This document shows positions 23,503 to 42,678 of a stretch of DNA of 64,000 nucleotides, piece by piece. The first letter of the stretch is position 1, and each line of letters opens with the position of its first letter. The position numbers were made by a program, and so were the translations under genes. Below the pieces are notes generated by a model that worked only from the letters and a program-made list of their open reading frames with translations, was not told where the DNA came from and made no database searches. The stretch comes from a virus (lineage: Duplodnaviria; Heunggongvirae; Uroviricota; Caudoviricetes): positions 32,001 to 96,000 of IMG/VR virus record IMGVR_UViG_3300029288_000055, one strand, 5' to 3'.

Positions 23503-24336
23503 TTATTTTAATCCTTGTATTAATGTATCTCCGTACTTGATTCCGTCATAACCCAATTTCATTGCTTTCTCGGCAATTGCTTTATTTTTCAGATTAATTG
23601 ACGGCATATCATATTGCTCGCTTATTTTTTCGAAATTTATATGTGGAAACCAAATCTTTGCCATAATATCAACAGGTTCTTGACCATCCTTATATGTAAC
23701 ACCCAACGAATGTAAATCAAGAAGGTTGTTAAATTCAATTTCATATTTATCAAAACCTTCAACTGGTTTTAATAAAAAGAAATTGCCAACTACTGAATTT
23801 TCTTTTATTGGGTCTTTTCGATAACCAATGATAACTTTACTATTTGTACCAGTATCTCCAGAAGGTTTAATTGCTATATTATCTTCTTCCAATGAATTTA
23901 AAAATTCACTATCACTAACTCCACTGCTTGCCTGATTATCTTGGTTAATAACATCCTGAGTGATCACTTCTTCCATCTGTTGTTTCTGCTGGTAGTCATA
24001 AATGTCTTGTATTTTATTAAGTAGTCTACAAGCATCTTTTTCATTCAATCCAAGTTTAACTCCTTTAATATTGACACCATCCAAGATTGCTTTAACCATC
24101 CTGTGATGACCATCACAAACCTTATTTTCGCCAGCAATCCAAATAGGATTACTATCAGCAAGATTAACCTTTTCTACTTCATCAGAAAATGTAACACCTT
24201 GTGATGCTTCAAGTTCATTAGGGTCTACTTCGATCAATTCATAATCCACACCTTCTTCTTCGAGCTTCTGCAATACAATTTCGTAAGGTGCATTTACCTG
24301 TGGAAGAAAAGCTGGCTTATAGCGCATGTCAATCAT
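23503..24336 (-). CDS. ParB/Srx-like domain protein with possible C-terminal ADP-ribosyltransferase-like domain
   Basis: PNELEASQ..PIWI..VCDGHHR (ParB-like); C-terminal GYR..GNFF..YEIEFNNLLDL..LGYDGIKY. Confidence 0.6.
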   Translation of the reverse strand: MIDMRYKPAFLPQVNAPYEIVLQKLEEEGVDYELIEVDPNELEASQGVTFSDEVEKVNLADSNPIWIAGENKVCDGHHRMVKAILDGVNIKGVKLGLNEKDACRLLNKIQDIYDYQQKQQMEEVITQDVINQDNQASSGVSDSEFLNSLEEDNIAIKPSGDTGTNSKVIIGYRKDPIKENSVVGNFFLLKPVEGFDKYEIEFNNLLDLHSLGVTYKDGQEPVDIMAKIWFPHINFEKISEQYDMPSINLKNKAIAEKAMKLGYDGIKYGDTLIQGLK

Positions 24337-24349
24337 TGTGATAATTTTA

Positions 24350-24922
24350 CTATAAATACGACTGTTTAAATTTTTGAATTTCTATAATGATAATATCATC
24401 CAGCTTATTTACTGCTTCAGTTAATCTTAACTCACCATTATTTGCTGTAAATATTCGATATTTTATGTTTTCTGGTACTTGTGATTCGATTTCTTGATAT
24501 GAAATAATGTCAGTATCCCTGTCATCATAAACATTAACTTCTCTCAAATCAGGAAATTTTTTTATATAATCAAGAATTTTTTGACCCTTATTTCTTTCAT
24601 CGCCTTTCATATCAAGTTTATCAACATGGATATTATTAACATCCAATATTGCCTGAACCAAGGGACGTAACCTTACTACTCTTGAAGTTAATACAATAAC
24701 GTAGGTGGCAGGTGTTGAAACATCTTTATTTAAAATGCTTAATACCTTTGGAAATGGTTTAATGTCAAAAACATTTAAATCCAAACTTTCGGGTCTGCCC
24801 CACCAGCCTTGATATTTAAATGGTTCGCCCATTACTTCTGACCAAGTAATCTTTCCAGATTCTTTGTCAGGAGAATTTATGAGTGTTCCATCAAAATCAA
24901 ATGCACAAAATCTTGTTATCAT
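24350..24922 (-). CDS. HAD-family phosphatase, RNA-repair ('Swiss Army Knife') type
   Basis: FDFDGTLINSP, WWGRPESL, VLTSR, K, VYDDR = HAD motifs I-IV plus the WW motif of the RNA-repair HAD clade. Confidence 0.8.
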   Translation of the reverse strand: MITRFCAFDFDGTLINSPDKESGKITWSEVMGEPFKYQGWWGRPESLDLNVFDIKPFPKVLSILNKDVSTPATYVIVLTSRVVRLRPLVQAILDVNNIHVDKLDMKGDERNKGQKILDYIKKFPDLREVNVYDDRDTDIISYQEIESQVPENIKYRIFTANNGELRLTEAVNKLDDIIIIEIQKFKQSYL

Positions 24923-24923
24923 T

Positions 24924-25307
24924 TTATTTATATTCTACTTCGGTTACTTTTCCTGTTAATGAAAGTGGTTTTCTGATTTTTTCCCAATTAGTGAGATTGT
25001 TAGACATTATTGGTTTACTGCCATTTGTCCTATTCACAGCCAGAGTTATGTGTGCTTTTGCATTATTCGTTTTAAATCCTGATACACCTATTGCAATTAC
25101 CTTATCATCCATTGCAATGTCTTCAACAGCTAATCGTACTGGCAATCCAAGATATTTTTCATACTCAGAGTCTATTTCACCCATATTAATAGTCATATGA
25201 TCAGCTATTACATTCCAGTTTTCAGGAATTATATTTTTAAATCTATTGATCAGTCTTTTTCTTGAATTTTCATCAAGAACAACTGCACTATAAGATATTC
25301 CAGCCAT
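24924..25307 (-). CDS. 2H phosphoesterase, tRNA-ligase CPDase-like (2',3'-cyclic phosphodiesterase)
   Basis: Two HxT motifs, DHMTI and AHITLAV, followed by KP..SN.L..W. Confidence 0.8.
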   Translation of the reverse strand: MAGISYSAVVLDENSRKRLINRFKNIIPENWNVIADHMTINMGEIDSEYEKYLGLPVRLAVEDIAMDDKVIAIGVSGFKTNNAKAHITLAVNRTNGSKPIMSNNLTNWEKIRKPLSLTGKVTEVEYK

Positions 25308-25963
25308 TAATATGTAAATTTTGTAAGTACATTATAATTTTTTCCCAATGCAGTTAATGCAATTTCAACTTCTTTAAAACATTCATTAATACCACCGCCA
25401 CATATTACCAATTTTCCTGAATATTTTTGTAAATATTCCATTAAATCAGGTATATTAAGAGCATCTTGTGCAGGTTGAAGAAAATCACGAACATCACTCG
25501 AATTGTAACCATATTCTTTCATAAAACCAAGCCACATTTCTTCATCAATATCTCTACTATCATTAATATTATTTCGAATCATGTATTTAACAAGATTAAC
25601 TATTTCTTCTTCATCATGACCACTATCCATGCAACTTCTGAAAAATGCATAACCTTTATCATAAAATCTGGCATAGTCGAGTATTGATTCTTTAAGACCG
25701 TTTTGAATTAACCACATTTTATATTCTTCTTCGCCCATACTGCCAACAGTATTTTCACCATTATATAAAAATGTAAGAGAATTCATTGTATCAAAATTTC
25801 TATTTAAAAATCGTATATAATCACCTAATACAAAACTAAATGCATTATGATATTCTGGTTGAATATCAACAGACAAGAGATTTGCATTTTGAACCAGATT
25901 AATGCCTGAATCTTCTAACAATTTATTACGTTGTTGCTCTTTAAGTAGTTTTTCTTTTTTCAT
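25307..25963 (-). CDS. Cysteine hydrolase (isochorismatase/nicotinamidase-like)
   Basis: LLSVDIQPEY (Asp), YDKGY (Lys), VICGGGINEC (Cys) triad pattern. Confidence 0.6.
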   Translation of the reverse strand: MKKEKLLKEQQRNKLLEDSGINLVQNANLLSVDIQPEYHNAFSFVLGDYIRFLNRNFDTMNSLTFLYNGENTVGSMGEEEYKMWLIQNGLKESILDYARFYDKGYAFFRSCMDSGHDEEEIVNLVKYMIRNNINDSRDIDEEMWLGFMKEYGYNSSDVRDFLQPAQDALNIPDLMEYLQKYSGKLVICGGGINECFKEVEIALTALGKNYNVLTKFTY

Positions 25964-28900
25964 TAACCAGTATTTTCAATAAAATTAATTTCTTTTATTG
26001 GTATTTTTTCAGGTGATTCATATGAATCCGAACGTGCTCTATGTGTATAAACAAAGAATCCATCTTTATCTGCACCCATGCTTACGCCTTCTGCTTTTAG
26101 CGTTTTATCCATTAATTCTTTTGGTTTAGTTAAACCATGTACATGACCACCTTCTTTATATGTCGAACCACCAGTAAAATATTTAAGAATCTTTTCTTTC
26201 ATTTCGGCACTAATAGATTTTGATCTCATTAATGCTGCTTTAGCATTTTCATAATCTGATTTGCCTTCATTTAATAATTCTCTATCTGTCAACGCCCAGA
26301 GTAATTCTTTTTTTAGTTTTTCATCATGTGTAAAGTCTTCATAATTATTTTGTATAAACTCAAGTACTGAAGCCTCTGAAGGGTCTTTATAACCACTATT
26401 TTCACCACCTTGATGATTCCATTCATCATATTTTTCAACAAAAAATGGTATGCCAACTTTCTGACCATTTATATCCCAAGTACTTATTTTTTCAGGCTCT
26501 AAAGCATCATATGAAAATTCTTTTAATAAACCTTTTTCATCAAGTGACAATATTTTACCGTCTTTTTTACCTTTATGACCTTTCCAAGTATAAACCAACT
26601 CATTACCTTTTAATATTCTTTCTTTTTCAAATGGTTTAACATATTTATCACCTTCACCTTTGTTAACATATGCAATAGTAATATGAGCATGATAGTCAGG
26701 AAATTTACTTGTATTTGGTAATTCTTTCATTATTCCATTTGCTTTTTTCAATACTTCTGAATCAACATCAAATTTAACTACGTCAAATTCAGGATTTTTA
26801 AACACTGAAATACCTTTAATACCTATTTCAATTGGCTTTAATGGCATTTTAGACTTGTAAAGCTCAAATACATCTTCTGCTGTTACTTCGTCATGAAAGC
26901 CATATAAAATTGTGGTATGTGGTTCGTTTTCAATACCATATCCTTCTTTATCATATATATCATTCTTGTCAATTATTGATGTTATCTTACTCCAGATAGG
27001 TACATCAAGAAATAACATTAAGCAACCATATTCAATTCTTTCTGGTATTTTTTCTTCATTAATTTCTTCTGCATTTGCAAATCCAACAATATTTCTTGCG
27101 TTTTGTAATGCATCATATTTTTTTATTGTTGTTAATCTTACATGCGAACCATTAATTGGATGGTTGTAATCAACTCTACCATTGTTAATAAATTCTTTAA
27201 GTTGTTCTTCAGTCATATTTGTTGTCCAAATATCGCCTTTAAATTTAGTGTCTAATGGACGCATTTCAATTAAATATGTGTTTGTTTCTTTATCAAAAAC
27301 AATTTTATTTAATATAACCATCATCATACCACTTGGACTGCCAAAATATAGTTTTTGATTACTATATTTTTTCCAACCCCAACTTTCGACATCTTCTTTA
27401 ATCATTGGCTTTTCTTGCTTTGCCAAAGATAATAATTCTTCTTTATTATTCATAGCCTTATTAGCATAAATTTTCAATAATAATGATTTTTGCATATCAC
27501 CAATTACTTTACCTTGTAAACCAAGTTGCATTAAATCATTACCATTTATTGCTAATTCATTAACTGTTTTTGGATATTTACCCTGCAGTAATTCTTGTGC
27601 TGCAGTTTTAATAACATTAGGTAATATCTGACTTTGCAATGAAGTTGGAGATATCACACACATATTATGAGCAACTGATCTTGCTTCAATCAAATTGGTT
27701 GCTTCACCACTTTCAAATGCTAATTGAAGTGCTTTTATTTCTCTGTATGCATTTTCGTCACCCTTTAAATTAGTTTTATAGAATTCTGCAGGATTATTAA
27801 CAAGATTTTTACTTAACAAGTAAACAAATTCACCCATTGTTCTGACTTTATCAAACGGTTCTTTTGTATTCCTGAAGTCATAATATAAACCTTTACCAAA
27901 TATTTCTTTTAATAAGCCAGTTTCATCCAATAATATAGCACCTGTCAAAATATTACCTTTTTTGATAATTTTATCAAATTCTGTCAAAATTCTTTCAGGA
28001 GCAATTTCTTTTACTCGACCAGCATTGTCTTGAATCATTTTCATTGTCTCTGGTTCAATAATAAAACCAAAACGACTTGCGAACTGTACGGCACGCAACA
28101 TTCTGAGTGGGTCATCACTGAATGCTTGTGGGTTAACAACCTTAATTATTTTATTCTTTAGGTCTTCCTGACCACCAAATGGGTCAACAACATTACCCTC
28201 AATGTCTTTTGCAATTGCATTTATTGTAAAATCTCTACGTTCCAAATCTTTTTCAATTGGTAATGCGTGATCTGATTTAACATCAAATCCTTGGTGACCG
28301 CCTTCACCAGTTGGTGTTTCAGTACGTGGAATTGCAATATCAATATCTTCAGTTGCTCCCTTTGGTTTAAATTTAAGAACACCAAATGATTTACCAACAG
28401 CATCTACACGACCATATTTGCCAAGTATTTGTTCAAGTTGTTCAAATGGCACACCAGTGATAAGAATATCTAAGTCTTTGGATTCTTTGCCAAGAAATTC
28501 ATCCCTGACAGCACCACCAACCGAATATATTTTACCACCAACTTCTTCAACATCTTCCCTGAACGGAAGATAATTTAATCCCATTATTTGTGCTTCATAT
28601 ATCATGCTACGCACTTTTTTATTTGAATATAAAAAATTATTTAAATTTTCTTTATCCATCGGTAATTTGAAAACGTAATTATATCCTTTAAATTCATCAT
28701 CAAGACCAACATCACCATAAATTTGTGATTCTCCACCCAATGAACTCGAATATGCATCAAGCAATATTTCTTTTAGTCTTTCTACTGTTGGTGCATGAAT
28801 ATCTAAAATATTTCCGATCTCTCCTTTATTAAAAATAATTCTTGTATAACCATCACCATATGCTTTTTCATATATTTCTCTTTGATTTTTTATCTCAGGA

Positions 28901-31900
28901 TATAATCGCACCAAATAAGCCAAATGTATATCAGAAGAAACAAATTTATTATCTGGTGTTATCCAACCTGAATGATCATAATTAGGCACAATAATTTTTG
29001 ATTCTGTCAACATTTCATTTACTGGTTCATGTTTTTGTTTACTCTTTTCTGGTTTAAAAGTTTTTACAAATGTATCATAAATTTTCTCAGCAATAACACG
29101 ATTTGCTCCATTTGGTATTTTTTTTCTGAACATCATTTCAATTTTGTTCGCAATCTCGTGAGCGTCATCATATTCGTAACCGTAATGTCTTATAATAAAA
29201 CTTTCAGTTCTTTCATGTAATAGTATTGCTTCAAAATCATTTGGCTTAATCATGAATACATCATCAATCCAATATTCATTTTCTGGAATATTTTTGGCAT
29301 ACTTTTGTTCATCTTCTGGAAGATCAGCATCAACCCAATGATTACCACCATCAACCCATTCAATAAATCCACTGTCACGAACCTGATCACCATTAACTAC
29401 AAAAACTTTATAAGTATTTTTTCCATCCTGATAATTTCTTATAAATTTTTTATCAAGTTCGTGAGTAATAATATCTTTTTCAATTTGTTTTTGAAATGTT
29501 GAAAAATCTTGTTCTGTTAAATCAAATTTATTTTCGGGACTAATGTTTGCAACATAGTCTGAGTAATTATCTGAATATATTTCAACAGATATTGTTTTTT
29601 CTTTATTCAAATATGCCTGTGCTACACGATGATATCCATCTTCAACTAAAAATGTTTTGTTTTCAATATTATAAAACACTAAAACTGGCTCATTTGTGGT
29701 AGTAGGTCTATCTTGTTTAATATCTTGAATTGATGCAATTATACCACGTTTACTAACTGTTAACTTGTTTAATGGAAAATCATTTACTGATATTGGTTCA
29801 TCTTTACTAACACCACGACTTAATTTATTTATATCAATTTTTTCATCTAAATCGTGTACATCTTCTTCGTTTAAATCCCAAAAATCAAATGAAGCCTGTT
29901 CAGCAAGATCATCAAAATCATCTGGTGATTTATCTGACATTATAGGTACTTTGCTGCCATATTTATTACGAATATAATTTTCAACATCACTTGATTTATA
30001 TTCTAATAATCGTCCAATCTCACGTGCTTCTTCTGGGGTTCTATCTGCAATATAACCATTGTTTCTTTTAACAATTTCATATAATAAATATGCATTAATT
30101 TTATCACGATATATGATTGCCATCATTGTTTGATGTGAAGTCATTCTCGTAGGAATAACACTAATTTTCTTTTTTTCTAATTTTTGAGCAATTGCTTTAT
30201 TTATTTCAGCAAAACCCACATTTCTTTTATTATTTAAAACCGATTTAATTGAATCAATATTAGTGCGAACATCTTTTACACTTATTTCTTCATTAATTTC
30301 TTCATTTTCTTTAAGCGGTTTTATATCCAAATTTTTAATATCACCTTGATTACAAGCAACGCTGGTATTACCAAGACCGCCTAATCTACATTTCTTTTTA
30401 ACATCAACAGTACTACTGCCAGCCATTGAAGATAATACTCGTTCAGATATTTCAAAATCATTAACTGGTGATGATATGTCAACAGCATTAATTGTTGATA
30501 TTTCTTTATTGAAAAAAGCAACTAATTTATGATATCCATCTATTAAAATTTTATCTGACACATTAACCACAAAATAGTCATTTAAATGTTTCTCAATATT
30601 TTCTTCATAATATTTTATTGTTTCTATTTGTTCTTTTTTTGCATAATCAAGACTATCCTCAATTTCACCATTATTGTAAAACAAATAAATATCTTTTACT
30701 TTTATTTGTTTAACTTCAAAATAATTATTATCATATTCATCAATAGTAATAAAATTCCATAATATTTCACGTTTGTCAGGCATTTCAGAATAAACATTAG
30801 ATAACTTAACGCCATTAATATGCTGAAATTCTTCACTCATTAAATATTCATCTTTGGTTGCATCATTCACATGATTATATTCTAAATCTTCATTATACAT
30901 TGATCTGTTTGCATTAAGATCATTTTGAATTGATGGCGAATTATCTGTATTATCATGTACAGGAAAATCATCTTGACCCATTGAATTATCGGTTGAAAAC
31001 TTAGCTGAACCATCTTCAGGTATGTATACAATATCCTGTGCGGTAAGTGTTGGTTCATTTGCTCTATAACCACCAATATCAAAGAATTTTAGTATCCCAT
31101 TTTTATATCCTAAATTACTTGGATTGCCATAATCATCTGATTTAATACCATATTTATATAATTCTTCCTGTATATTAATCAAATCAATTAAATAATCATA
31201 TGCCAATTCTCTATCTTCATTAGATATGTTTGTTTCAGGTTTATCTGTTAATATGTGCTTTGCAACTTCTGTTATTTCTGCAGGAGTTCTTTTACGCATT
31301 TTTAATAATATATCAATAAAATTTAAACCTGCTGGTTCAATTTTATTAATAATATCCATATATCTAAAAAATTCTGCTCTTGGTTTATCCTGAATGTTTT
31401 CTTGAAGTATAGCAAAAAATGCCAATTGTTTTTCAGTGTCAATTACTTTATAAAACGAATATATTTTACTAATATATTTTGGTTCTTCATTCATTAATTT
31501 ACCAGCAGCATCTGCTTCGCTTTTATCTGCTGTTAATTTAAAAATTACATTATCATTTACTGTAAAGGCATAACCATTTGCACCACCATCCAAATATTGT
31601 AATTGACCAATATTTAATTTTGCTGCAACAGCATTTGCCAATTCAATTGCATAGTTCTTATTCTCTAAAGTATATGGTTGAACTGCAGGTTTTGATGTAC
31701 TTGTTATTTCATTAATTTCATATTCTTCTTTAAGTAATGGTTCTCTATTATATAAATTTTGTTCAATAAGACATTCTTGAAGTGCTAACAAATTATTATA
31801 GAATTTCTTTTTCTCAGGAACACGTTTCAATACTTCTTTAAGATTATTTACACAGTTATGAAATTCATCAAGAACATATGGTGCACTTGGCAACTTTTTT

Positions 31901-32706
31901 GGATATTTATCTCTGGCAAGCACAAACGAAATGAAACCTTCATTAATAACGCCACCGCCATCACCAACACTATAGGGCATTTGCGCCCACATACCTCTAC
32001 GTGTATCAACAGCATCTTGTGGTGGCATATCTGAAAGCATATCATCATTACCATCAGCACAATTAAACATTTCATATATTTGATATTGACGTTTTCTTTG
32101 TGGACTGTAATGTGTATTATATACTTCGTCAGTTAAACCATAGTCAGTAAGAACAATTGTTGGCTTACCATTACGTATTACTTCACCAAATGTACTTGCT
32201 CTATTTAAATCACCAGCACTAATAGAATAATTTCCTATTATATCTTCTAATTCAATAACAAATTCATTATTATTTAAAAGTTCTACAATTGCTTCATCCT
32301 GACCAAATGTGCCTCTTCCACCTTTATGATTATCTTCAAAATTCTTAAGAAATAAAAATAATTGAAATAAACTTGGGATGCCAGTTAATTGTTTAATTCT
32401 TGATTCACTAACTTTTTTTGCTTTTTCAGCAATAATCCAATTGCCATTTGGGTCATATTCATAAATTTTAGTGACAATATCGTGACTATCTTCATATGTA
32501 CCGATATTTATTTCTTCTTCGTTTTGTGCTACTCCTTTGGTATTCTTAGCAATTTTAAATACTTTAGTACCATCAATATCATATACAATTCTACCACTAC
32601 CTGCACCAAGTTTTTGAAGGTTTTGATCAGCAAACATTATTTTCTGTCTAAATGATTGTATTTCTTCAAATTGGTCTAAGAAATTTAAGAAATTTTCGTA
32701 AGTCAT
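25963..32706 (-). CDS. 2247-aa polyvalent protein: 2 kinase-like, 2 ParB-like, HE-type domain, CCA-adding nucleotidyltransferase, Acb1-like 2H phosphodiesterase and several unknown domains
   Basis: LGAGSGR/VFKIAK/DYG; DGGANG/IFKLT/DYGNPSN/FFDIG; IDGYHK; EDGYHR; LLHERTE..AHEIA; VGGAVRD..KDLD..RRDFTINA..DDPLRMLRA; PHTTILY..HAHITIAY. Confidence 0.85.
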   Translation of the reverse strand: MTYENFLNFLDQFEEIQSFRQKIMFADQNLQKLGAGSGRIVYDIDGTKVFKIAKNTKGVAQNEEEINIGTYEDSHDIVTKIYEYDPNGNWIIAEKAKKVSESRIKQLTGIPSLFQLFLFLKNFEDNHKGGRGTFGQDEAIVELLNNNEFVIELEDIIGNYSISAGDLNRASTFGEVIRNGKPTIVLTDYGLTDEVYNTHYSPQRKRQYQIYEMFNCADGNDDMLSDMPPQDAVDTRRGMWAQMPYSVGDGGGVINEGFISFVLARDKYPKKLPSAPYVLDEFHNCVNNLKEVLKRVPEKKKFYNNLLALQECLIEQNLYNREPLLKEEYEINEITSTSKPAVQPYTLENKNYAIELANAVAAKLNIGQLQYLDGGANGYAFTVNDNVIFKLTADKSEADAAGKLMNEEPKYISKIYSFYKVIDTEKQLAFFAILQENIQDKPRAEFFRYMDIINKIEPAGLNFIDILLKMRKRTPAEITEVAKHILTDKPETNISNEDRELAYDYLIDLINIQEELYKYGIKSDDYGNPSNLGYKNGILKFFDIGGYRANEPTLTAQDIVYIPEDGSAKFSTDNSMGQDDFPVHDNTDNSPSIQNDLNANRSMYNEDLEYNHVNDATKDEYLMSEEFQHINGVKLSNVYSEMPDKREILWNFITIDEYDNNYFEVKQIKVKDIYLFYNNGEIEDSLDYAKKEQIETIKYYEENIEKHLNDYFVVNVSDKILIDGYHKLVAFFNKEISTINAVDISSPVNDFEISERVLSSMAGSSTVDVKKKCRLGGLGNTSVACNQGDIKNLDIKPLKENEEINEEISVKDVRTNIDSIKSVLNNKRNVGFAEINKAIAQKLEKKKISVIPTRMTSHQTMMAIIYRDKINAYLLYEIVKRNNGYIADRTPEEAREIGRLLEYKSSDVENYIRNKYGSKVPIMSDKSPDDFDDLAEQASFDFWDLNEEDVHDLDEKIDINKLSRGVSKDEPISVNDFPLNKLTVSKRGIIASIQDIKQDRPTTTNEPVLVFYNIENKTFLVEDGYHRVAQAYLNKEKTISVEIYSDNYSDYVANISPENKFDLTEQDFSTFQKQIEKDIITHELDKKFIRNYQDGKNTYKVFVVNGDQVRDSGFIEWVDGGNHWVDADLPEDEQKYAKNIPENEYWIDDVFMIKPNDFEAILLHERTESFIIRHYGYEYDDAHEIANKIEMMFRKKIPNGANRVIAEKIYDTFVKTFKPEKSKQKHEPVNEMLTESKIIVPNYDHSGWITPDNKFVSSDIHLAYLVRLYPEIKNQREIYEKAYGDGYTRIIFNKGEIGNILDIHAPTVERLKEILLDAYSSSLGGESQIYGDVGLDDEFKGYNYVFKLPMDKENLNNFLYSNKKVRSMIYEAQIMGLNYLPFREDVEEVGGKIYSVGGAVRDEFLGKESKDLDILITGVPFEQLEQILGKYGRVDAVGKSFGVLKFKPKGATEDIDIAIPRTETPTGEGGHQGFDVKSDHALPIEKDLERRDFTINAIAKDIEGNVVDPFGGQEDLKNKIIKVVNPQAFSDDPLRMLRAVQFASRFGFIIEPETMKMIQDNAGRVKEIAPERILTEFDKIIKKGNILTGAILLDETGLLKEIFGKGLYYDFRNTKEPFDKVRTMGEFVYLLSKNLVNNPAEFYKTNLKGDENAYREIKALQLAFESGEATNLIEARSVAHNMCVISPTSLQSQILPNVIKTAAQELLQGKYPKTVNELAINGNDLMQLGLQGKVIGDMQKSLLLKIYANKAMNNKEELLSLAKQEKPMIKEDVESWGWKKYSNQKLYFGSPSGMMMVILNKIVFDKETNTYLIEMRPLDTKFKGDIWTTNMTEEQLKEFINNGRVDYNHPINGSHVRLTTIKKYDALQNARNIVGFANAEEINEEKIPERIEYGCLMLFLDVPIWSKITSIIDKNDIYDKEGYGIENEPHTTILYGFHDEVTAEDVFELYKSKMPLKPIEIGIKGISVFKNPEFDVVKFDVDSEVLKKANGIMKELPNTSKFPDYHAHITIAYVNKGEGDKYVKPFEKERILKGNELVYTWKGHKGKKDGKILSLDEKGLLKEFSYDALEPEKISTWDINGQKVGIPFFVEKYDEWNHQGGENSGYKDPSEASVLEFIQNNYEDFTHDEKLKKELLWALTDRELLNEGKSDYENAKAALMRSKSISAEMKEKILKYFTGGSTYKEGGHVHGLTKPKELMDKTLKAEGVSMGADKDGFFVYTHRARSDSYESPEKIPIKEINFIENTG

Positions 32707-32750
32707 ACTTAAATTATTATTAGTATGTTTATAAATACAAACTTAATGCG

Positions 32751-32783
32751 AAAAAAAAGCGCAATTACAGTTGCGCTTTTTTT
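32751..32783. terminator. Intrinsic terminator (bidirectional form) overlapping the stop of 32765..33442
   Basis: A8-GCGCAA-ttacag-TTGCGC-T7. Confidence 0.85.
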
Positions 32784-42168: not shown

Positions 42169-42186
42169 GTTTTATTCAATATCTTG

Positions 42187-42216
42187 CAAAGATAATCAAA
42201 AAAATGAACTTGTCAA
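42187..42216 (-). promoter_or_regulatory. Bacteroidota sigmaA-type promoter for helicase-polymerase operon
   Basis: Minus strand TTG-N19-TATCTTTG, 18 bp upstream of ATG 42168. Confidence 0.75.
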
Positions 42217-42219
42217 GGT

Positions 42220-42678
42220 TTAAAATTTTGAAAAAAGTTTTTTTATTAGTGGCAAGTCATACCATTTTTTTGAACCATTTGATAATTCAGCATCATAATG
42301 CTTACCATTATAATAAATCCATGAATGATTTATTTCTTCACTAACTTTTTGTAAATCTACTGGTGGATAGCCATAATAATCTAACATCATTTTTGACCAA
42401 ATGCCATATGGCGTTTCAATTATTTCCTTCCAATTTTCTCTGGCAAATTCTGGGTCTCTCGTATTAAAAAACATATCACCAGTTAGTTCATGTAAATTAT
42501 TTGATTCTTCACCTATTTTATTAATAATATCTTGTGTAAATTGATCACACATACCATTATTAATATCCCATAATGTACATTTATGCTGTGTGGTATATTC
42601 ATTAGATAATTGTTTAATAATAAAAGATATGTACGAATCTCGTATTTCTTCGTTCACTATTTCAACAACATTTTTCAT
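42220..42678 (-). CDS. Papain/transglutaminase-like fold protein (putative Cys-His-Asp triad)
   Basis: INNGMCDQF..HSWIYYNGKHYDAE; start moved to MKNVVEIVNEE (42678) because a GTATTTAT motif lies at 42703-42710. Confidence 0.55.
   Translation of the reverse strand: MKNVVEIVNEEIRDSYISFIIKQLSNEYTTQHKCTLWDINNGMCDQFTQDIINKIGEESNNLHELTGDMFFNTRDPEFARENWKEIIETPYGIWSKMMLDYYGYPPVDLQKVSEEINHSWIYYNGKHYDAELSNGSKKWYDLPLIKKLFSKF

Follow-up and report, generated by a model that had tools for sequence, protein, structure and literature searches.

We analyzed a 64,000-nt stretch of viral DNA (hereafter the window; positions 32,001 to 96,000 of IMG/VR record IMGVR_UViG_3300029288_000055, equivalent to C1:32001-96000) and concentrated on a single gene within it that encodes a multi-domain polyprotein of 2247 aa. 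The parent contig (C1; 362,763 bp, 30.5% GC) is an uncultured T4-like jumbo phage of 363 kb, because phage replication, tail and T4-type head genes are all present: genes for a DNA polymerase, helicases, the baseplate and tail fibers lie within the window, and a T4-type head module consisting of a portal, an S77 protease, a 543-aa scaffold-like protein and a gp23-family capsid protein is found about 100 kb away. C1 had been placed in a 1.27-Mb bin, in which the GC content of the other large contigs is 33-43%, and was probably binned together with a cell. An original prediction, made from the letters of the window, had described the gene as a set of possibly packaged effectors separated by sites for a gp21-like prohead protease, of the form [IL]-x-E (Ile or Leu, any residue, Glu). 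The polyprotein indeed has the proposed architecture, its [IL]-x-E sites are enriched and conserved at the module junctions, a gp21-type protease is encoded by the same phage, and the gene belongs to the promoter class of head and tail genes.

The open reading frame (ORF) is intact and, by homology breakpoints and AlphaFold models, contains at least 12 modules (Table 1), which bears out the earlier description of one 2247-aa ORF with about 12 modules; the positions originally given for these modules likewise agree with Pfam, PHROG, AlphaFold and Foldseek assignments. AlphaFold2 (AF2) was run on the two halves of the protein with 50-row alignments each, and Foldseek searches with the two half-protein models returned the dominant folds only (kinase, CCA and 2H). 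Both kinase-like domains matched APH(2''), MTR kinase and Hanks kinases with a probability of ~1. Judged by its head domain (PolyA_pol PF01743, 5e-23), RNA-binding neck (PolyA_pol_RNAbd PF12627, 4e-14) and modeled overall fold (Foldseek 1MIV, E 1.6e-18, TMt 0.71), residues 1375-1765 form a class II CCA-adding enzyme. The 2H phosphoesterase domain has the motifs HTT and HIT; its nearest Foldseek match is phage Acb1 (7T27, E 8.7e-5, TMt 0.60), and the Pfam Acb1 score of 23.2 bits falls under the 27-bit cut-off. Two putative ParB-like modules owe their name solely to a DGYH(K/R) motif and to ParBc matches in homologues. Apart from the CCA enzyme, the best-conserved piece is a small two-Cys module (residues 756-797, window 30316-30441; VxVKKKCRLGGLGNTSxACNQGDI) that is found in ~116/120 homologues with eight invariant residues (V767, K770, C773, G777, C785, N786, G788 and D789). 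Neither a family nor a confident fold turned up for it; a role in docking the polyprotein inside the prohead is possible.

Table 1. Features of the polyprotein locus in window coordinates. Percentages give conservation of the P1 Glu; "confident" marks AF2 domains modeled with confidence beyond the kinase, CCA and 2H domains.
Feature	Residues	Window	Strand	Support or conservation
Terminator-like hairpin and T-run, end of upstream gene		32751..32776	(-)	
Promoter-like motif GTATTTATA, 32 nt ahead of ATG		32730..32738	(-)	
Polyprotein gene P0001, 2247 aa		25963..32706	(-)	Intact ORF
Module 1, protein-kinase-like, N-terminal MTYENF helix	1-196	32119..32706	(-)	phrog_4301; AF2 pLDDT ~88; Foldseek kinase/APH
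Acidic DGNDD segment, between IYE 210-212 and INE 254-256	197-252	31951..32118	(-)	Low confidence
Site IYE	210-212	32071..32079	(-)	P1 Glu 100%, full motif 100% of 49 aligned homologues
Module 2, helical domain	253-329	31720..31950	(-)	AF2, confident
Site INE	254-256	31939..31947	(-)	Glu 98%
Site INE, within 8-aa AF2 linker 330-337	331-333	31708..31716	(-)	
Module 3, second protein-kinase-like domain, last residues IPE 562-564	338-564	31015..31695	(-)	AF2 pLDDT 90-97; Foldseek
Site IPE	562-564	31015..31023	(-)	Glu 100%
Conserved acidic stretch, then ParB-like module 1 (DGYHK)	565-750	30457..31014	(-)	Poor model; ~30/120 homologues
Site ISE	753-755	30442..30450	(-)	Glu 94%; P3 hydrophobic in only 12%
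Small two-Cys module, then LKE 798-800 and INE 804-806	756-806	30289..30441	(-)	
Alpha/beta domain	807-920	29947..30288	(-)	AF2, confident; pLDDT 83-91
Site cluster LAE, LNE, LDE	934-955	29842..29907	(-)	
ParB-like module 2 (EDGYHR)	970-1045	29572..29799	(-)	phrog_17560; AF2, confident
Site LTE	1063-1065	29512..29520	(-)	
HE..H domain, possibly zincin-like	1073-1219	29050..29490	(-)	AF2, confident
Site LTE	1233-1235	29002..29010	(-)	
GWITP module	1236-1366	28609..29001	(-)	Rare among homologues; poor model
Site IYE, ahead of CCA module	1369-1371	28594..28602	(-)	Glu 96%
Class II CCA-adding enzyme	1375-1765	27412..28584	(-)	Pfam, PHROG, Foldseek
Site IKE, behind CCA module, within 10-aa AF2 linker	1769-1771	27394..27402	(-)	
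Small beta-rich module	1776-1848	27163..27381	(-)	AF2, confident
Sites INE and IPE, ahead of 2H domain	1882-1889	27040..27063	(-)	
2H phosphoesterase, Acb1-like, two HxT motifs	1890-2057	26536..27039	(-)	
Sites LDE and LKE, behind 2H domain	2055-2063	26518..26544	(-)	
Conserved module WDINGQ..FFVEKYDEWN	2074-2142	26281..26487	(-)	AF2, confident; ~85/120 homologues and many short forms
Site LNE, within 7-aa AF2 linker	2145-2147	26266..26274	(-)	Glu 97%
C-terminal module	2150-2247	25966..26259	(-)	AF2, confident; last 44 aa match phrog_3666
Downstream genes, co-transcribed, similar modules as separate proteins		23503..25963	(-)	

All junction motifs listed in the original prediction are present in the sequence, and their clustering at boundaries, on which its argument rested, is well above chance by two independent boundary definitions. 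For the first definition we took BLAST breakpoints as homology breakpoints and counted one as positive if the Glu of an [IL]xE lay within 6 aa. In the query, 14/20 breakpoints carry the motif compared with 4.9 expected, a count that 0/2000 random placements reached, and [IL]xE ranks top among 47 control trimers. Across the family (121 members, 1347 breakpoints) there are 696 positives versus 232.6 expected, a 3.0-fold enrichment that is the best of 96 control trimers, with MxE (2.4-fold) and VxE (1.9-fold) as runners-up; in the 12 members at <60% identity the enrichment is again 3-fold (88 vs 28.5 expected) and first of 96 controls. No family-wide enrichment was seen for [IL]xD (0.7-1.0-fold), [IL]xK or [IL]xN, which stayed at or under expectation. 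By the second definition, short low-confidence AlphaFold linkers between confident domains, 10/10 linkers carry [IL]xE (4.8 expected; 0/1500 random placements). The motif is thus enriched in linkers and not in cores, as the original prediction had required, with a flat [IL]xD control, and the signal resides in the seams, not in disorder as such.

Chance or composition would attribute this pattern to a trimer that is common in an AT-rich, Glu/Ile/Lys-rich proteome, combined with an artifact of boundary calling, and would fit the overall excess of [IL]xE in the protein (48 vs 33.5 expected from composition). At the level tested this explanation is refuted, and we hold its probability to be practically nil: both boundary definitions, the random placements and the 47-96 control trimers all pick out [IL]xE, the equally common [IL]xK, [IL]xN and [IL]xD are not enriched, and the junction Glu persists among homologues that share 40-90% identity. 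As another source of the motif we considered recombination at conserved linker DNA and ruled it out, since neither the codons nor the residue in the middle are constant (LKE, INE, IDE, LTE, IYE, IPE).

Conservation at the junctions is centered on the residue that a gp21-type enzyme would require. The cleavage motif of T4 gp21 is L/I-x-E, with the cut behind the Glu, and a P1 Asp prevents processing (PMC9026906). At ten junctions of the polyprotein (E212, E256, E333, E564, E800, E806, E936, E1371, E1771 and E2147) the P1 Glu is 82-100% conserved, with Asp in <=3% of rows and flanks that are merely 44-70% conserved; at junctions generally, Asp takes the P1 position in <=6% of rows. For [IL]xE trimers in domain cores, by comparison, the motif is kept in ~37% of rows (median). 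The alignments therefore indicate that the junction sites are under selection. Their P2 and P1' residues are polar, as expected if the sites are exposed. E212 is invariant in 50 sequences, one of just 18 such columns across the N-terminal half, yet it lies in a low-confidence loop; several homologues begin 8-12 aa ahead of this IYE 210-212 site.

The original prediction had proposed looking for a gp21-type protease elsewhere in the genome, and one with both catalytic residues is encoded at C1:174117-174818. This S77 protease has 31% identity to T4 gp21 (PF03420, E 6.5e-19; phrog_207), and its catalytic His (EADHP) and Ser (GISSRG) match the positions at which the inactive T4 structure PDB 5JBL carries mutations. 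The genome yielded no further S77-type protease. An S77 protease is also present in 5/5 complete related phage genomes that carry a polyprotein homologue. In the complete related genomes G001, G002 and G004 (loci L034, L056 and L057), the S77 match comes in two pieces ~1.1-1.2 kb apart inside a 615-651-aa open frame, pointing to a protease gene with a large insertion or a fusion.

The capsid protein, which has at least 8000 relatives among the matches listed, aligns with T4 gp23 and is similar to the T4 propeptide in its N-terminal region (LLEG followed by FENQ). It reads MINE60|S, followed by a variable Ser/Thr stretch, at the place of LTE65|AEIGG in T4 gp23, and the I-N-E at residues 58-60 occurs in 118/120 homologues, with LNE and MNE in the remaining two; we predict from this alignment that I-N-E is the maturation site. 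Against a genome-wide observed/expected ratio of 1.1 for [IL]xE, the scaffold-like 543-aa protein (L003:8344-9975 (-) = C1:172344-173975) has 20 occurrences vs 7.8 expected (2.6x), and a 261-aa protein beside the portal (L003:16937-17722 (-) = C1:180937-181722) has 13 vs 5.9 (2.2x), an excess that would be expected of prohead core proteins degraded by the protease. Two proteins of ~890 aa encoded beyond the window, at C1:22088-24760 (-) and C1:187163-189814 (-), are rich in [IL]NE (5 vs 0.8 and 4 vs 0.4 expected, respectively) and may be further protease substrates or virion cargo.

The late-type motif noted earlier at 32730 proved to be real, and GTATTTATA belongs to a class that stands before head and tail genes. 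Motif discovery on C1 yielded three upstream classes. For most of its 66 genes, the class with (A/T)AGTATTTAT(A/T) is located 20-47 nt upstream, and GTATTTAT was found before the scaffold, protease, portal, fiber and polyprotein genes; judging from the genes downstream of the motif, this class would be late. CGTATAA(G/T) with TTGTAACC precedes ~45 small genes at C1:269-306 kb (+) and 318-356 kb (-), and a Bacteroidota-like TAnnTTTG stands before some genes such as the helicase at window 42169-42260, from which the host phylum is probably Bacteroidota. Upstream of the polyprotein homologues, [GC]TATTTAT occurs 25-47 nt before the ATG in 39/39 distinct IMG/VR loci, compared with a background of 0.7% of windows, and is usually preceded by a T-run in the same place as here. 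A terminator-like hairpin with a T-run lies just ahead of the motif (Table 1), and the polyprotein gene therefore opens a new transcription unit.

In the database there are 168 homologues, 1263-3198 aa in length. Scanning viral contigs with a single sequence gave no match, and an alignment-based scan recovered the IMG/VR loci through which homologue gene neighborhoods were viewed. Common to the homologues are the kinase pair, the two-Cys module and the CCA enzyme; the remainder varies and includes GNAT, ART-PolyVal (PF18760), CPD and ParB (ParBc) modules, with PF10307 (HAD_SAK_1) fused in homologue P0291. Whichever module comes next, the seam after the CCA domain is hydrophobic-x-E, and the seams of divergent homologues read INE, LKE, IDE, LNE, ITE or ISE, often doubled. 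In P0272, on a 364,702-bp contig, the gene begins MNE|D exactly at the query seam IPE564|D. Homologues thus gain, lose and swap modules exactly at hydrophobic-x-E sites, the pattern of breakpoints that the original prediction had anticipated. In the close relatives P0257 and P0267, on one 136,940-bp contig, the polyprotein is split into two genes just ahead of the CCA module. Among cultured phages, megablast with the gene gave no match, and tblastn found only the CCA part and stand-alone homologues of kinase 1 (~195-216 aa, phrog_4301) in XacN1 (ORF170), 121Q (gp308) and Slickus01 (L006, L007 and L008). The XacN1 kinase gene adjoins GNAT, 5'-nucleotidase and macro-domain genes, which represent modules of like kinds in unfused form; the main text of the XacN1 paper does not mention ORF170 among virion proteins.

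Most homologues begin MTY[DEA]EFK.NFLPE|F. T4 IPII and IPIII start MKTYQEFIAE|A, in which capsid targeting depends on the Tyr at position 4 and the Phe at position 7, and processing is directed by positions 8 and 10 (PMC9026906). The family leader retains Tyr and Phe at the T4 spacing, followed by L-x-E, and variants without kinase 1 have 8-12 starting residues that end in [IL]YE. By analogy with the T4 internal-protein leader, the MTYxEF helix may be a capsid-targeting signal; we treat the likeness as a lead, not as proof, and homology is not established. A family of T4-style cargo proteins with a common leader was rejected, as a search of the ORFs of C1 for MTYxxF found none.

In repertoire the gene resembles the polyvalent proteins, which carry 2-15 distinct effector domains per polypeptide, are predicted to be packaged and delivered with DNA, and include C-lobe-less kinases reported mainly in Bacteroidetes and Verrucomicrobia phages (Iyer et al. 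2017, PMC5512222). As in those proteins, many effector domains share one chain, drawn from a repertoire of truncated kinase, ParB, 2H, GNAT and ART-PolyVal (GNAT and PF18760 being seen in homologues of the query), and C1 itself encodes the portal, the capsid protein and the protease, the promoter is of the structural-gene class, and a baseplate cluster follows downstream. CCA-adding enzymes have 0 occurrences in that paper, and no paper that connects polyvalent proteins with prohead-protease linkers came up in our full-text literature search. Processing there was proposed to be by zincin-like peptidases acting in cis, whereas here the conserved [IL]-x-E at the seams matches a trans-acting prohead protease. 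We accordingly considered whether the chain processes itself, with the HE..H domain as a zincin-like metallopeptidase, or whether a host protease cuts the linkers. Besides the published prediction of in-cis peptidases, a weak ESM Atlas lead to Peptidase_M78 (score 0.78, the other matches being unnamed clusters) speaks for a peptidase; Pfam and PDB comparisons gave no peptidase support, the motif is HE(x8)H rather than HExxH, and the module occurs in only ~33/120 homologues (~27%) as opposed to a universal junction motif. We consider such self-processing or host cleavage very unlikely.

Processing by the phage's own head protease has closer parallels. The internal proteins IPI-III and Alt of T4 are late, head-packaged, ejected anti-host proteins processed by S77 gp21 (PMC9026906, PMC5694885); alt adjoins baseplate genes much as the polyprotein gene sits upstream of the baseplate cluster, and the T4 leader MKTYQEFIAE compares with MTYxEF...LPE in the polyprotein family. 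Unlike the T4 internal proteins, which have single functions and shed short terminal propeptides, the polyprotein has ~12 internal sites that would free ~12 enzymes. In phiKZ-like jumbo phages, the gp21-related protease (phiKZ gp175, SPN3US gp245) makes many post-Glu cuts across numerous packaged head and ejection proteins, and some substrates are cut multiply (PMC5694885, PMC9026906); recombinant phiKZ gp175 sets a precedent for activity in vitro. The phiKZ-like phages differ in that their motif is S/A/G-x-E and that most of what is cut are inner-body or vRNAP proteins, whose long propeptides are discarded; a modular enzyme polyprotein with a site per domain seam has not been described there. 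RNA-virus polyproteins such as those cut by picornavirus 3C similarly combine one translation product, short conserved sites between folded modules and a viral protease, but there is no homology, the phage is a double-stranded DNA virus, and processing would here serve to deliver cargo with the virion rather than to economize on genome. Swiss-army-knife RNA-repair proteins (HAD_SAK_1, PF10307) bring CCA, 2H/CPD and HAD modules together, fused in some homologues (PF10307 in P0291) and adjacent here; RNA-repair and CCA enzymes are regarded as cytoplasmic, whereas this gene places them within a much larger kinase/ParB polyvalent framework that has protease-type linkers. A survey of jumbo phages mentions CCA enzymes and polyvalent proteins separately (PMC7824862).

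In our reading, which we favor at slightly better than even chances, the gene encodes a polyvalent effector protein that would be synthesized late, enter the head and be divided there by the prohead protease into individual enzymes for ejection; packaging, cleavage, ejection and the counter-defense roles are what we infer from the features described. Transcription from the promoter class of the head and tail genes would give a late protein that enters the assembling prohead, perhaps through the MTYxEF helix, where the gp21-type (S77) serine protease would cut after the Glu of [IL]-x-E sites in almost every inter-module linker. The head would then contain ~10-12 separate small enzymes to be ejected with the DNA: two truncated kinase-like domains, ParB-like modules, the CCA-adding enzyme, the Acb1-like 2H phosphodiesterase and further modules. 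Before phage gene expression, these might repair tRNA 3' ends, destroy cyclic-nucleotide alarm signals and modify host proteins. Because each module is flanked by a cut site, modules could be added, lost or swapped as cassettes. All of the computational tests named in the original prediction favor packaging and cleavage.

The chief rival, which we regard as unlikely though far from negligible, is a cytoplasmic multi-enzyme hub that stays uncut or is cut outside the capsid, with [IL]-x-E serving another protease, docking or linker structure. Such a hub would be made late, repair tRNA and other RNA, and damp host signaling during a long jumbo-phage cycle. It agrees with the HAD_SAK_1-like and CPD-like RNA-repair modules encoded by downstream genes, and it draws strength from several observations that weigh against packaging and cleavage. 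Short, CCA-first forms without the N-terminal leader retain the junction motif, so that either they take another head-targeting route or the motif has another purpose, and the stand-alone kinase-1 homologues of the cultured jumbo phages XacN1 and 121Q lie amid non-structural genes. Further points against packaging and cleavage are the finding that only 16/48 [IL]xE fall in low-pLDDT sequence (predicted local distance difference test; 24% of the protein), a modest excess per residue; the breadth of the GTATTTAT class, whose 66 genes are not all plainly structural; and the occurrence of the fused form in no cultured phage of the collection, the phage itself being uncultured. For the leader in particular, the copy in the window reads LDQ, without the Glu that most homologues have, no other ORF of C1 has an MTYxxF start, and in the AlphaFold model residues 3-15 form a confident helix packed onto kinase domain 1, so that the leader may be part of the kinase-1 fold, not a propeptide. 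A hub, however, leaves the gp21 specificity of the junctions unexplained (Glu with hardly any Asp at P1, Ile/Leu preferred to Val/Met at P3, polar P2), as well as their match to the predicted maturation site of the capsid protein and the constant structural-gene promoter motif of all 39 loci, and a version that invokes another protease finds no second S77-type enzyme in the genome.

Polyvalent proteins are regarded as cocktails of injected anti-defense activities, and packaging followed by cleavage addresses the question of how a 250-kDa, 12-domain chain gets packaged, passes the tail and becomes active. A prohead-protease site at the seams would be a concrete, testable answer that joins T4 head maturation to counter-defense, and cut sites at the seams would account for the cassette-like turnover of modules. 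For the broader proposal, in which a widespread T4-like jumbo lineage derives ten or more injected enzymes from one late gene via an [IL]-x-E 'linker code', with cassettes shuffled between sites, we see an even chance. It would supply a sequence rule for spotting virion-delivered effectors in the very abundant uncultured jumbo phages, and if true, sets of injected effectors could be read directly from uncultured-phage sequence. Candidates for new anti-defense activities would include the two truncated kinases, the Acb1-like 2H domain, a virion-borne CCA enzyme and several further folds.

The stop of the polyprotein gene overlaps the start of the next gene at 25963. The downstream set consists of a 218-aa protein, a 2H/CPD-like protein (24924-25307; PF08302 at 27.8 bits), a HAD_SAK_1-like phosphatase (24350-24922) and a 277-aa protein with DGHHR that is ParB-like. 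Two of the downstream genes start with short leaders whose end is [IL]xE (MKKEKLLKE and MAGISYSAVVLDE). Of nine neighboring genes, four or five encode an [IL]xE in their first 20 aa, compared with 22% of all ORFs, an excess too weak to serve as evidence for shared leaders. In the head module, a 1798-aa protein (L003:11540-16936 (+)) has a C-terminal endolysin-like domain (phrog_291, 2e-41) and the GTATTTAT motif, and is a candidate for an ejected cell-wall-digesting protein.

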